A DNA stretch of 26,022 bases from Clostridia bacterium (GCA_029052615.1 JAIDIR010000024.1:1-26022), one strand, 5' to 3'. Shown: positions 4,575 to 25,735, counted from the stretch's first letter. Program-made: numbers and translations. Notes: generated from the sequence alone by a model not told the origin.

Positions 4575-4826
4575 TTAACTTACCCATATCCAGGCAATAC
4601 ACCCCATAATCCCGAAAACAACAATTATGATAAGGAATACGGGCGCGTAGGCGGCGAACGCCGCGCGGACGAGCTGCCAGTATTCCTTGCGGCTGAGCTT
4701 TTGCTTGTGCGGGCGCGTGCCGTTATTCTTTTTTGCCTGCGGGTTGTACCACCTGAAGCCTTCCACGTTCATATCCGCGAAAGTCGTTTCCGTATCCAGG
4801 TCGTCCCTCTTTTTATTCTTTTTCAA
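4575..4826 (-). CDS. Small single-pass membrane protein of unknown function, 83 aa
   Basis: TTG start with an upstream GAGGA SD, overlapping the oppF stop by 14 nt. Basic N-terminus, a TFADMNVEGFRWY segment and a C-terminal TM helix (PVFLIIIVVFGIMGCIAWIW). It ends just before the terminator. Confidence 0.7.
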   Translation of the reverse strand: MKKNKKRDDLDTETTFADMNVEGFRWYNPQAKKNNGTRPHKQKLSRKEYWQLVRAAFAAYAPVFLIIIVVFGIMGCIAWIWVS

Positions 4827-6081
4827 CGTTACCGTCCTCTGTCTGTTCGGTCTGCTCCTGCGGCTGTTCCTCGGTTTTTCCGGACTTTTTAAACGCGCCT
4901 TTAACCTTGGCTACGACTTTATTAAACGTGGTAACGACCTTGACTTTCGCCTTGTTCAAAGGCTTGTTCGCCTCCTTTTCTGCGGCGATAGCTTCGTTAC
5001 GCTCGTTCTCTTCAGCCTGTGCAAGCAGTCTTGCAGTGTCCTCCTCGCTGTTGTAGAGGTGGCACGAACAGAAGTGCCCTTCCTCCACCTCCCTGTACTC
5101 GGGAGCGATGCGCGAACAGATTTCCATGCAATGCTCGCAACGGGTGTGGAATTTGCAGCCCTTGGGAGGATTGACGGGCGAGGGTATGTCGCCCTTGAGC
5201 ATAATCCTGTTCATCTTTACGTGAGGATTGGGCACGGGCACTGCCGAGAACAGCGCCTTGGTGTAGGGGTGCAGAGTGTGACTGAACACGCTTTCCTTAC
5301 TGCCGTACTCCACGATATTGCCCAGGTACATTACGCCTACGTCGTCGGATATGTGCTTGACTACCGACAGGTCGTGCGAAATGAATATGTACGTAAGCCC
5401 GAGCTTTTCCCTCAGCTCTATGAGCATATTTATGACCTGCGCCTGAATGGAAACGTCCAGCGCCGACACGGGCTCGTCGCAGATGACCAGCTTGGGTTGA
5501 AGCGCAAGCGCGCGCGCAATGCAGATACGCTGGCGCTGACCGCCCGAAAACTCGTGGGGGTAACGCTCGAAATAATGGGGCTGTAAGCCGCACATATCCA
5601 TTACCTTAAGCACGTAATCGTGAAAGCCCGCCTTGTCTACGAGGTGGTGCTGACGCGCCGACTCGCCTATTATTTCGCCGACCGTAAGACGGGGCGAAAG
5701 GCTTGCGTAGGGGTCCTGGAATATCATCTGCATATTGGGACGGAGCTTGTCGAACTCGCGGTTTTTAAGCTTTGCCACGTCCTGACCGTCGAACAATATT
5801 TCGCCCTGCACGCCGTCGTAAAGGCGGAGAAGCGAACGGCCCATAGTCGATTTGCCGCAACCGGATTCGCCGACTATACCCAGTGTTTTGCCCTTTTTAA
5901 GCGTAAAGGATATACCGTCCACCGCCTTTAAAAACTTAATAGGCTTGCCGAAAAAGTTCTTTGCGACGGGGAAGTATTTCTTTAAGTCGTTGACCTGAAG
6001 GAGAACGTCGTCGGGCATTGCGGTTTCGGCGGTCTGTGCGCTTTCGGTTTCAAGCACTTCGCCGTTTTCAGTCTTTTCCAT
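4813..6081 (-). CDS. oppF: Oligopeptide/dipeptide ABC transporter ATP-binding subunit OppF
   Basis: Walker [10 protein letters not shown]-loop FQDPYASL, signature FSGGQRQR, Walker [12 protein letters not shown]-loop ISHDL, HPYT domain with a Cys cluster. Confidence 0.95.
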
Positions 6082-24300: not shown

Positions 24301-25735
24301 TGCTGGAATATCTGCCCAGCGTGCCCACTATGCCGCCCGCGTGCATCGCGCCGTAGATGTTGCCCGTAGAATAGCTGTTTACGACGTAGCCTATCGCGTT
24401 GGTATTTGCCGAAACGAGATAGCCGACCAAGCCGCCCGCCGAACGGGGGCTGCCCGTGCCTTCGATATTGACGTTAGTCGAACACGACCGCACGAAGGAA
24501 TCGTAGGCTACCGTCGTGGAAGAATCCAGGTTAACGTAAGCCGCCTGCAGGTAGCCTGCAAGACCGCCCGTAAATATTATCTGGTTGTCGTCGCCGAACG
24601 CGATAATATCGCCGTCCGCATGGCAGTTGGTAATCTGAACGCCTATGCCCGAGCCGACAAGCGAGCCCGAAAGCGACCTCGTTTGCGATTCGCCGGGGTG
24701 AACGCGCACTTCGTAATCCTTTAAAGTCAGATTTTTGATAACTACTGGCGAAGCGGTCGTAGGCACCGCGTTTCCGAAAAGTCCGACGGCGGTAAGGTAT
24801 TCGTTCTGATAGTTTTCCTGGTTTATAACCTCGTCGGTAATGAAGAAATTGCTTATCGTCTTGCCGTTGCCGTCGAACGTGCCCATAAACGCGGCGCTGT
24901 CGTTAGACCCGTCGCCTATTACGAACATCTGCGCGCCCTGCATATCGATATCGGTTGCAAGCTTGTAATGTTTGGTTCTTAAATCGACGTAATAGTCGTC
25001 GTTGACCACTACCGCCAGATAGAACATATCTATGGGGCGGGAAAGCAGGTAAGGGTCGTCCTCCGTACCCGAACCGCAGTCTTTGCGGAAGAAAAAGTTA
25101 TCCTCCTGTACCAGACCCGAAACTCTTACCGTGCTGTCGGAAGTGATATCTTCAACCGTGTACACGCCGTTTTTATCAGGTTCCAGCACCTCGTAGCCGC
25201 AGTTTACCGAACACGACTGTACGTAATAGGGGCTGATGTCAAGCTTGAATTTAAAGTTGCTGCCGCCTTCTAAACGCACCTCGTCACCCAGCTCGTTGCC
25301 CTTTTCGTCGAGGTAAGTAATCCAGCGCTCCTCGCGCCTGTACTCTCCGTCGCTTCCCAGAACCTCCTCGAATTTATCCAGCGTAAGAGTGTAAATTCCG
25401 TTAAGACCGCTTGCGGAAACTTTGGTCTCGCGGTTCATAATAAACGAATAAACTCCGTTTTCGTCGGGAGTAAGCGTGGTGCCGTCGCTTAAAGAAATTA
25501 CGGGCTCGCCTATGGTGCTTGCGCCAAGCGAAACGGTAAAGCGAACCTCCACTCCCTTTTTAACCGTACCGCCGTTTTCGAACTCGGCAAGCCTGTCCTG
25601 CAACACGTAGTCGATGCCGGGGCCTTCGAAAATCAACTGGTAGTACTTGGGAGCGGTACACGCCGCCGCGCCGCACAGGCACGAAACGCCCGCCGCAGCG
25701 ACTAAACCGAGCATAGCTTTTTTGAATTTATTCAT
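21332..25735 (-). CDS. Large surface lipoprotein or adhesin-like protein: two N-terminal beta-sandwich repeats, a GLUG beta-helix region, and tandem beta-rich GxW/Y modules, 1467 aa
   Basis: Signal peptide ending GAAAC (C26, non-canonical lipobox). Duplicated LxPDxNGVY motif, then GSGTEDDPYLL..YKLATDIDM..FMGTFDGNGKTISNF, then repeated GG(L/I)(V/A)G motifs. GGAG SD. Confidence 0.8.
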   Translation of the reverse strand: MNKFKKAMLGLVAAAGVSCLCGAAACTAPKYYQLIFEGPGIDYVLQDRLAEFENGGTVKKGVEVRFTVSLGASTIGEPVISLSDGTTLTPDENGVYSFIMNRETKVSASGLNGIYTLTLDKFEEVLGSDGEYRREERWITYLDEKGNELGDEVRLEGGSNFKFKLDISPYYVQSCSVNCGYEVLEPDKNGVYTVEDITSDSTVRVSGLVQEDNFFFRKDCGSGTEDDPYLLSRPIDMFYLAVVVNDDYYVDLRTKHYKLATDIDMQGAQMFVIGDGSNDSAAFMGTFDGNGKTISNFFITDEVINQENYQNEYLTAVGLFGNAVPTTASPVVIKNLTLKDYEVRVHPGESQTRSLSGSLVGSGIGVQITNCHADGDIIAFGDDNQIIFTGGLAGYLQAAYVNLDSSTTVAYDSFVRSCSTNVNIEGTGSPRSAGGLVGYLVSANTNAIGYVVNSYSTGNIYGAMHAGGIVGTLGRYSSITNCYSTSIVSASNTISSALVSSDYMVAYAGGIAGFADEDSAIVSCYVANGKLSANSVHGSIYEDTGKAYDGVIGHSAEKGAIAVNSSSAVLYNNQSKRSGATAAMFTETLGWSEYDWIFTGDLPTIQPVARILYEKRELTVNVRAVWGDFQRTYSYEVSERPPIHDWYSHVLPEYETNGLGDKLSWGYYFDTALTKKVPYGFVPAAKQTTLFVDFADYSEVAGKYYVSDATYSNGAYMELDTNGNVFFRNGGLTYRSKYTYDGNEITLIDSACANLLYTMEEINGGYCTFRGVKTDEGFILSGKTMMVDVVNSTEEDQVEVIREMQLTVVRQSDNFVYGEYRANGDGSTYVFNKGGTGVFTNARKVRQSFTYTVSGNDVEIIYDGGNGGAEATLSNGKVVKVGNVNVSLKDGFAGLWRATANSDVWFEFDGFGALRYKQGGLIATSTYNPDGTFSVGGNSYTASLNENSVLEINGKQYYLDDGFTGTWYFTSGKERIEVTLDGAGRNGYGDATISYAGNQVVSLSAQYDVFTDSYGTSLRVYVQDRTYGELVLDSASGKASGIFYSMHYSAYYEDAQFLLYDNYRGTWVGNAAQLGDIKVDTVTFDGKTVSGKAEVIITDDLGVTHRGTYTPDGVTVGGNTYSLSPDELEGTVSIANDVTLARRDEWYGVTLYEGDTTYKFDGKGYLTGTVTVSDGTELSYTVRGGVVTVGSNELRADENGFTLGGKTLTFKSGFVGEWLVAGTDYCLNITEVAEAFKAKVTYSDPEFAGTYYFVYNPVTATLTYTQDVGGEKLVTTIGLLGGNEISIRQNSVSVYLSRNALRSSLVDEWKGTYNNSDNLTSWTFNGLGNSAYGSGKAVFKAADGTETEYYYKINAFGVPYISVDGGKTFVGSSFGDYFKDGDGYYLQDLNALYEREVTLVVPEGDNLRLIFDGVSTLYRKDGDELIAAYTYQIDGENEVTLTAVNSNQKYKGTIKKEGVTYYLALSE
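21335..23650 (-). repeat. Degenerate tandem protein repeats (about 8-9 units, 60-110 aa) in the C-terminal half of the 1467-aa lipoprotein
   Basis: Units start with D/S-x-F/Y/W-x-G-x-W/Y (EVAGKYY, FVYGEYR, GFAGLWR, GFTGTWY, NYRGTWV, EWYGV, GFVGEWL, EWKGTY), most followed by a hydrophobic-F/L-D/N-G motif. Confidence 0.6.

Follow-up and report, generated by a model that had tools for sequence, protein, structure and literature searches.

Can a protease that cuts protein at the cell surface and the importer that takes up the resulting peptides be encoded as one genetic unit? This question is raised by a locus of nine genes, g1 to g9, in a metagenome-assembled genome (MAG) of an uncultured gut Clostridia bacterium (GCA_029052615.1). 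The window analysed here is the entire contig JAIDIR010000024.1, with a length of 26,022 bp. All nine genes lie on the minus strand, from position 25735 down to 4575, and they encode a large lipoprotein (g1), a giant subtilase with an arm of leucine-rich repeats (LRRs; g2), a second lipoprotein (g3), an enlarged binding protein (g4), the OppB-, OppC-, OppD- and OppF-type components of an oligopeptide (Opp) importer (g5 to g8) and a very small membrane protein (g9). The source MAG comprises 1.47 Mb on 350 contigs and is 94% complete. Most work on gut protein breakdown concerns Bacteroidota and a small number of cultured Firmicutes, and to our knowledge little has been learned about how the abundant uncultured Clostridia with small genomes acquire nitrogen. 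We consider it probable that the locus is a dedicated system that digests extracellular protein and imports the resulting peptides.

Linkage of protease and importer genes across genomes

First, the gene order is conserved within the genus. The complete order from g1 to g9 was found in all 11 genus loci that were fetched, wherever the contig allows. The region of g2 coding for the S8 protease was detected in 62 of 81 genus genomes, or 46 of the 54 of high quality, in open reading frames (ORFs) of about 2360-2750 amino acids, and a search with g3 gave homologues in 12 of 24 sampled genomes of the same genus. Conservation is uneven along the locus. Identity to the window proteins in the genus is 28-44% for g1, 39-57% for g2, 24-43% for g3 and 36-55% for g4, against 58-79% for OppB and OppC, 78-93% for OppD and 47-77% for g9. 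Within g2 it falls from about 60% in the S8/Fn3 head to about 43% in the LRR arm and about 18% in the tail. The fast divergence of the surface parts, set against the conserved transporter, suggests that the surface proteins may face either immune pressure or substrates that differ from species to species. An independent metagenome contig in Logan, retrieved with a g3 profile, also carries these nine genes, for which Pfam calls had been precomputed.

The linkage extends beyond the genus. The order concerned is probably Christensenellales. Candidatus Coproplasma corresponds to UBA11940 of GTDB in the family Borkfalkiaceae, order Christensenellales, with genomes of 1.4-1.7 Mb and about 50-56% GC (PMC8035907). 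The oversized binding protein was found in 37 of 201 sampled genomes of the order, and 20 loci from other genera and families, representing at least seven families, were fetched for comparison. Of these 20 loci, 15 have a giant S8-LRR gene on the upstream side of the importer genes. In 14 of them its position is directly upstream, separated by a lipoprotein gene alone, and in G170 the distance is about 7 kb; one further locus is undecidable, its contig ending early. Across the families, identity of the g2-family protease is 28-40%. A locus in another family of the class (G419) has the S8-LRR protease, the lipoprotein, the binding protein and Opp all present.

The initial annotation, which proposed surface binders, an LRR-subtilase and a remodelled Opp importer in one operon, named as one possible refutation that homologues of the protease and lipoproteins might never be syntenic with opp elsewhere. 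This is not the case, given the 11 of 11 genus loci and 15 of 20 order loci. The data support the view that the protease, the lipoprotein and the remodelled Opp form a conserved unit and not a chance neighbourhood. The proposed set of surface proteins stands only in part: the protease and a lipoprotein belong to this conserved unit, but g1 was detected only in the genus and g3 also occurs without the protease. The core module thus consists of g3, g4, OppBCDF and g9. Most lineages of the order have the protease joined to this core, and g1 was found as an addition in this genus alone.

Two observations on copy number and insertions may be added. One genome of the same family and another genus (G127; L040 and L050) carries two copies of the lipoprotein gene, the big binding protein gene and opp. 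One copy is accompanied by the giant protease; the contig of the other stops just past the lipoprotein gene. In OppB of five loci from four families (L035, L036, L037, L038 and L039; f36, f40, f34 and f42), there is an insertion of about 150-220 amino acids after approximately residue 68, which the genus of the window does not have, as judged from gaps in tblastn matches.

The protease, the lipoproteins and the importer

The protease gene g2 (13671..21278) encodes a subtilase of 2535 amino acids that is similar to cell-envelope proteinases (CEPs), with domains assigned by Pfam. Its parts are, in order, a signal peptide, an S8 domain with an inserted PA domain, an fn3_5 domain, a Big_2 domain, an LRR_5 arm of the BspA type, a C-terminal membrane helix and an acidic tail. 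Peptidase_S8 is matched over residues 206-737 (E 9.5e-41), PA over residues 533-605 inside S8, and fn3_5 over residues 780-894. The residues D215, H292, N416 and S670, which represent the Asp-His-Ser triad and the oxyanion Asn, are invariant in all 22 orthologues compared. Among solved structures, C5a peptidase, SpyCEP and CEP A come closest to the catalytic region (E 1e-52 to 1e-46), and the alignment with ScpA and SpyCEP extends through residue 926, over S8, PA and Fn3. The LRR_5 match (E 2.6e-115) consists of seven stretches at roughly residues 1480-2180, an arm of about 700 amino acids. Such tandem LRR_5 repeats are the mark of BspA-type leucine-rich-repeat surface proteins. In NCBIfam, the arm matches the HupY/LrrG adhesin model.

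The mode of anchoring sets g2 apart within the CEP group. Its S8 catalytic residues and its inserted PA and Fn3 domains are those of the group, but the LPXTG/wall anchor is missing. LPXTG is absent from every g2 orthologue scanned (n=24), and 19 of these 24 show a hydrophobic helix at the C-terminus that is followed by a charged tail. Against the LPXTG-anchored SGO_0316 family of NCBIfam, g2 scores 214 bits where the cut-off is 1400. The sequence identifies g2 as an intact CEP-type subtilase, whose C-terminal helix is predicted to anchor it to the membrane. The catalytic head is predicted to sit at the distal end of a stalk of about 2000 residues, which is made of Fn3, Ig and BspA-type LRR parts. 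No rotamase or PrsA domain that would indicate a maturase of the PrtM/PrsA type is present in the nine products; the remaining genome was not searched for it.

The importer is encoded by g4 to g8. The gene g4 (9560..12184) encodes a family-5 substrate-binding lipoprotein of 874 amino acids, in which SBP_bac_5 of Pfam is matched in two stretches. The stretches are separated by an insertion of about 200 amino acids, mostly helical, at approximately residues 182-400. The structural model (pLDDT 87.7) has the core of a cluster-C substrate-binding protein. A profile search against the PDB put AppA of Bacillus subtilis first (E 6.8e-20), followed by other peptide-type binders, with nickel binders weaker by about 12 orders of magnitude; the closest solved relative by sequence is also AppA, which binds nonapeptides. 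The best NCBIfam match is Opp4A, an oligopeptide binder, and no equivalog cut-off is reached. The g4 family contains at least 1953 clusters at E<=1e-30, and the best 120 of them come from MAGs or metagenome contigs. In loci of other Clostridia families (L073-L079), binding proteins of about 820-850 amino acids align with g4 on both flanks of residues 180-396, but not across this region, which suggests that their insertions may be either independent or strongly diverged at the same site.

The permeases are encoded by g5 (8561..9538; OppB type, with BPD_transp_1 and matches to the Opp4B/OppB models of NCBIfam) and g6 (7374..8561; OppC type, with OppC_N at residues 71-110 and BPD_transp_1). The latter has an N-terminal extension of about 65 amino acids. 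Both ATPases carry ABC_tran and oligo_HPY. The OppD-type ATPase of g7 (6068..7369) has an N-terminal extension of about 50 amino acids and an insertion of about 50 amino acids after Walker A, so that ABC_tran occupies residues 74-286 for a profile of 137 positions. In the OppF-type ATPase of g8 (4813..6081), oligo_HPY ends at residue 322 of 422, and a Lys/Glu-rich C-terminal tail of about 80-100 amino acids follows. All five components of an Opp/Dpp transporter (TC 3.A.1.5) are thus present above the Pfam gathering cut-offs. The enlarged OppA and remodelled Opp that had been described at first reading are real and conserved, and the expansions include OppC, OppD and OppF.

The last gene, g9 (4575..4826), was left uninterpreted by the initial annotation. 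Its product of 83 amino acids is basic towards the N-terminus, has a single membrane helix at the C-terminus and gives no match in Pfam or NCBIfam. In at least six families, the gene after that of OppF encodes a homologue or a protein built in the same way, also at loci without a protease gene nearby. The g9 family has 239 clusters, and every named one is hypothetical. From this distribution, g9 is a conserved last component of the module, a predicted small single-pass membrane protein.

Lipoboxes or lipoprotein signal peptides are found in g1 and g3 as well as in g4. The gene g3 (12223..13674) encodes a lipoprotein of 483 amino acids. The window sequence has no Pfam or NCBIfam match, and its description rests on an AlphaFold model (pLDDT 90.4), structural alignment with VIA-align and Pfam matches of family members. 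The model consists of a beta-grasp domain like the InlB B-repeat (residues 38-202), a MucBP/SHIRT-like domain (201-295) and a right-handed beta-helix of the GLUG type (295-483). The similarity scores are middling, with VIA Z values of 7.1-7.5 for the beta-grasp domain against the InlB B-repeat and 6.3-7.6 for the beta-helix against IgA1 proteases. Among the latter, a putative IgA1 protease of Bacteroides ovatus (3n6z) is the best (Z 7.6), and those of Gemella and pneumococcus are also aligned. A 'GLUG domain protein' in the AlphaFold database (AFDB) matches residues 299-481, and Flg_new of Pfam is present in 15 of 22 members of the g3 family, in agreement with the structural alignments. The Flg_new/GLUG character of g3 can therefore be stated at the level of family and fold, and not from the window sequence alone. 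A single known solved fold for the whole of g3 was rejected: a Foldseek search against the PDB gave no match at E<=0.001, and only the individual domains are matched by VIA.

At E<=1e-30 the g3 family contains 1024 clusters at 50% identity, with proteins of about 400-540 amino acids. Each locus inspected has a gene for a lipoprotein of this type (370-540 amino acids) immediately before the gene of the big binding protein, even the four loci of the order without a protease gene nearby and those in which a tblastn search with g3 gave no match. These lipoproteins carry a lipobox and a VTY/FxxNGG motif, together with matches to Flg_new, GLUG, Pectate_lyase_5 or Peptidase_M26_N. Because g3 is kept beside the binding protein where no protease gene is nearby, it looks like an accessory of the transporter rather than a partner of the protease.

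The other lipoprotein, encoded by g1 (21332..25735; lipobox, Pfam), has 1467 amino acids. It consists of a MucBP-like N-terminus (weak, E 0.008), a GLUG beta-helix at about residues 215-620 (E 1.4e-8) and, toward the C-terminus, an array of weak lipocalin-like/DUF5640 repeats (DUF5640 E 1.7e-5). Homologues of g1 were detected in 10 genus loci, and none in the loci fetched from other genera or families; g1 was therefore rejected as a member of the conserved core. A close paralogous relationship between g1 and g3 was also rejected, since their BLASTP match covers only about 70 residues at the start of the beta-helix (E 0.016).

Gene packing, transcription signals and neighbouring genes

The nine genes are tightly packed. 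From g1 to g9, the intergenic gaps are 53, -4, 38, 21, -1, 4, -14 and -14 nt, and a Shine-Dalgarno-like sequence precedes each of the nine genes. An ORF list reproduced exactly the nine co-directional genes and the gaps given in the initial annotation. The promoter candidate at the 5' end, the one clear terminator at the 3' end and the absence of a strong internal terminator, which it had also described, were likewise upheld, and the promoter proved to be conserved across species.

The promoter (25852..25880, minus strand) was found by a promoter scan and by conservation. It has a -35 element TTGCAT, a 17-nt spacer and the extended -10 element TGATAATAT. Four species of the genus share this promoter-like site, and both hexamers are kept in G021, G015 and G011. 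The 5' leader (25736..25851) ends in a GGAG Shine-Dalgarno sequence, and its initial 25 nt or so are conserved in close relatives. A known RNA element or riboswitch in the leader was rejected, as no Rfam family was found at E<=1. A perfect AT-rich palindrome of 19 nt with 7-nt arms was read from the sequence at 25905..25923 (minus strand), about 25 nt upstream of -35. The surrounding block is kept in four genus species and the flanks vary, and the palindrome would be a candidate operator for some regulator. Control by CodY was rejected: no CodY-box is present near the promoter, and the two matches with three mismatches are intragenic and do not exceed the number expected by chance. The contig stops 287 nt upstream of g1, where the view of the upstream region ends.

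Downstream of g9, an intrinsic terminator at 4536..4564 has a 12-bp stem with T runs on both strands and a folding energy of -25 kcal/mol. It is bidirectional, shared with the convergent gene at 3196-4521, and it is the strongest terminator-like site. Over the scan, the totals of terminator-like sites match the shuffled expectation (15 against 13.6, and 19 against 17.2), and no convincing internal terminator was found among g1 to g9. In the 53-nt gap between g1 and g2, RNAfold gives a GC-rich hairpin of 7 bp without a T run (21291..21309, minus strand), which immediately precedes the ribosome-binding site of g2. It is not terminator-like, and could be a processing or stabilising element. The overlaps and short gaps, the promoter conserved across species and the single strong terminator fit one operon.

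Parts of the locus are covered by assembled contigs of RNA library X19 and of the 'RNA-Seq' viral-metagenome libraries X6 and X20, which may contain DNA. These contigs come from related strains, 90-99% identical to the window. The g1/g2 junction is bridged by record 14 of X19 and record 29 of X6, and the g3/g4 junction by record 27 of X6. The contigs are compatible with transcription through these junctions, and hint at co-transcription.

Several neighbouring genes recur. On the minus strand of the window, positions 110-3173 hold genes for a polyferredoxin-thioredoxin/redoxin fusion (725 amino acids; Fer4_5, AhpC-TSA, Redoxin) and a membrane protein of 294 amino acids. Homologues of this pair flank the locus in G010, G024, G012 and G169, and in G419, which lies outside the order. 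The plus-strand gene at 3196-4521 encodes an SDH_alpha-family protein of 441 amino acids and is convergent with g9. Such a gene is found repeatedly beside the locus; in G112 and G169, an SDH_alpha-family gene is located directly upstream of the protease gene, at the position of g1. In G021 (L015:4453-10887), two more large co-directional genes precede g1 with a gap of 363 nt. They encode a protein of 1240 amino acids (CarboxypepD_reg, Big_1 and collagen-like repeats) and one of 814 amino acids with no family.

Function of the locus and comparison with known systems

If the locus digests protein and imports the peptides, as we consider probable, its work can be pictured in three steps. The protease head and the LRR arm, in this genus also g1, would hold and cut proteins at the cell surface. 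The adhesin-like g3 and the oversized g4 would then gather oligopeptides near the membrane, and OppBCDF would import them, perhaps with g9 as an extra subunit.

Some observations weigh against this reading. No protease gene is found within about 13 kb in four of the 20 order loci, and in seven of the eight loci fetched from other families of the class the enlarged importer stands without a protease gene nearby; the importer is therefore not dependent on the protease in cis. The genome contains hisD, ilvD and argH above cut-offs, and only trpB falls below, so the organism is not a broad amino-acid auxotroph; obligate amino-acid auxotrophy was rejected as the rationale of the locus. ScpA and SpyCEP, to which the protease is closest among solved structures, are enzymes of immune evasion and not of nutrition. 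By fold, Foldseek ranks AppA first for g4 (TM 0.79 by target), and NikZ and NikA are nearly level with AppA and OppA. The RNA evidence consists of assembled contigs from libraries possibly holding DNA. Finally, peptide import by g4 to g8 and proteolysis by g2 are both deduced from sequence and structural models.

The kinship with C5a peptidase and SpyCEP, joined by the match of the LRR arm to an adhesin model, raises the possibility that the protease serves mainly adhesion or host interaction. It might cleave host immune or mucosal proteins, or its LRR arm might mediate attachment, and its adjacency to Opp would then be inherited or a matter of co-regulation, with products that do not feed the importer. 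The surface parts do evolve much faster than the transporter, as is expected for proteins that face a host or partner, and a genome that is not broadly auxotrophic agrees with such a role. However, the adjacency is kept in at least seven families at 28-40% protease identity, often with one g3-like gene between, and gene order seldom survives such divergence without a functional link. The locus also holds the only peptide-type importer of the genome. We therefore regard this explanation as rather unlikely.

It is quite improbable that the importer takes a non-peptide ligand, such as nickel or another metal chelate, an oligosaccharide or a cell-wall fragment, with a g3 beta-helix that binds glycan and a protease that is unrelated. 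The near-equal ranking of NikZ and NikA by fold is set against the profile search, in which AppA leads and the nickel binders lag far behind, and against Opp4A as the best NCBIfam match. Some relatives of g3 match a pectate-lyase-like adhesive domain, and the protease-free loci have unrelated neighbours, for example a fucose isomerase; in most loci, however, importer and protease are linked. A role in signalling, in which the protease would mature secreted pro-peptides and Opp would re-import them as in the Phr/Opp system of Bacillus and the pheromone systems of enterococci, is very improbable, since beyond this general precedent of signalling peptides carried by Opp and processed by subtilisin-type proteases, the locus has no gene for a small pro-peptide, an RRNPP-type receptor or any other regulator, and a 2535-residue LRR protease with two large lipoproteins is out of proportion for pheromone maturation.

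Apart from the gene order conserved across the order, protein digestion coupled to peptide import is favoured by the content of the genome. The SBP_bac_5 protein, the oligo_HPY ATPases and the OppB and OppC of the locus are the only ones found in the assembly, and g2 is the sole S8 match found in the 94%-complete genome. One locus thus encodes both the only importer of peptide type and the only subtilase found, and this locus is near-core in a genus of more than 80 species and recurs across the order. Literature on peptidases or oligopeptides in Christensenellales, on protein or peptide utilization loci, on subtilases with BspA and on Coproplasma yielded no description of the operon. If the reading is correct, the locus would be a Gram-positive 'protein utilisation locus' with new parts, namely a lipoprotein family of about 1000 clusters, a mini-membrane protein and an oversized binding protein, and it would mark proteolytic potential in metagenomes. 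A more far-reaching proposal is possible but doubtful. A seven-part Opp machine (a g3-like lipoprotein, the binding protein of about 870 amino acids, OppBCDF and the mini-subunit), present across much of Christensenellales, might dock the membrane-anchored LRR-protease of 2500 residues as a Gram-positive 'proteolysome', in which the fast-evolving LRR arm, g3 and, in this genus, g1 would set specificity at the level of species. Such a proteolysome would be the protein-directed counterpart of the Sus-type utilisome.

Among known systems, the lipoprotein g3 is comparable with GLUG and Listeria-Bacteroides-repeat proteins and with M26 IgA1 proteases in its beta-helix and its N-terminal domain like the InlB B-repeat. 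It differs in that it has no catalytic domain, is a lipoprotein and belongs to its own family. The importer resembles Opp of Mycoplasma and Mesoplasma. Matches of g5 to g8 to the corresponding NCBIfam models (MMSYN1_0165-0168) have E values of 1e-43 to 1e-92, and in those systems, too, the binding proteins are long and the ATPases contain large insertions. The scores are far below the equivalog cut-offs, so that the expansions may be independent. We know of no linkage of the Mycoplasma and Mesoplasma Opp to a protease.

For the catalytic region of g2, ScpA/ScpB and SpyCEP are the closest solved relatives. They are LPXTG-anchored virulence proteases of about 1100-1650 amino acids with single host targets and are not linked to transporters, whereas g2 has 2535 amino acids, is predicted to be anchored in the membrane, bears LRRs and is operon-linked to Opp.

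The polysaccharide utilization loci (PULs) of Bacteroidota combine SusC/SusD with surface glycan-binding lipoproteins and enzymes, and RagAB of Porphyromonas imports peptides. In the locus described here, genes for surface binders likewise stand together with those for a surface hydrolase and for a dedicated importer. However, the importer is of the ABC type, and the nine products contain no SusC/SusD pair or domains of TonB-dependent transporters. No carbohydrate-active enzyme family is found among them, and no regulator gene is found in the locus. The initial annotation had called the locus a proteolytic analogue of a PUL; the layout is indeed analogous, but without SusC/SusD this is an analogy only and not membership.

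The nearest functional model is found in lactic acid bacteria, which use the cell-envelope proteinase PrtP (lactocepin), with PrtM, and the Opp importer; the opp operon of Lactococcus lactis also carries pepO. Shared with that system are a surface S8 proteinase with inserted PA and Fn3-like domains, a family-5 binding lipoprotein and OppBCDF. The present locus differs in having a C-terminal membrane helix instead of the LPXTG/wall anchor, no PrtM-like maturase in the locus, the BspA-type LRR arm of about 700 amino acids, the additional g3, g9 and, in this genus, g1, and enlarged Opp components. Above all, proteinase and importer stand here in one operon-like block that is conserved order-wide. 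The locus can thus be described as a genetically integrated form of the known system of cell-envelope proteinase and Opp.

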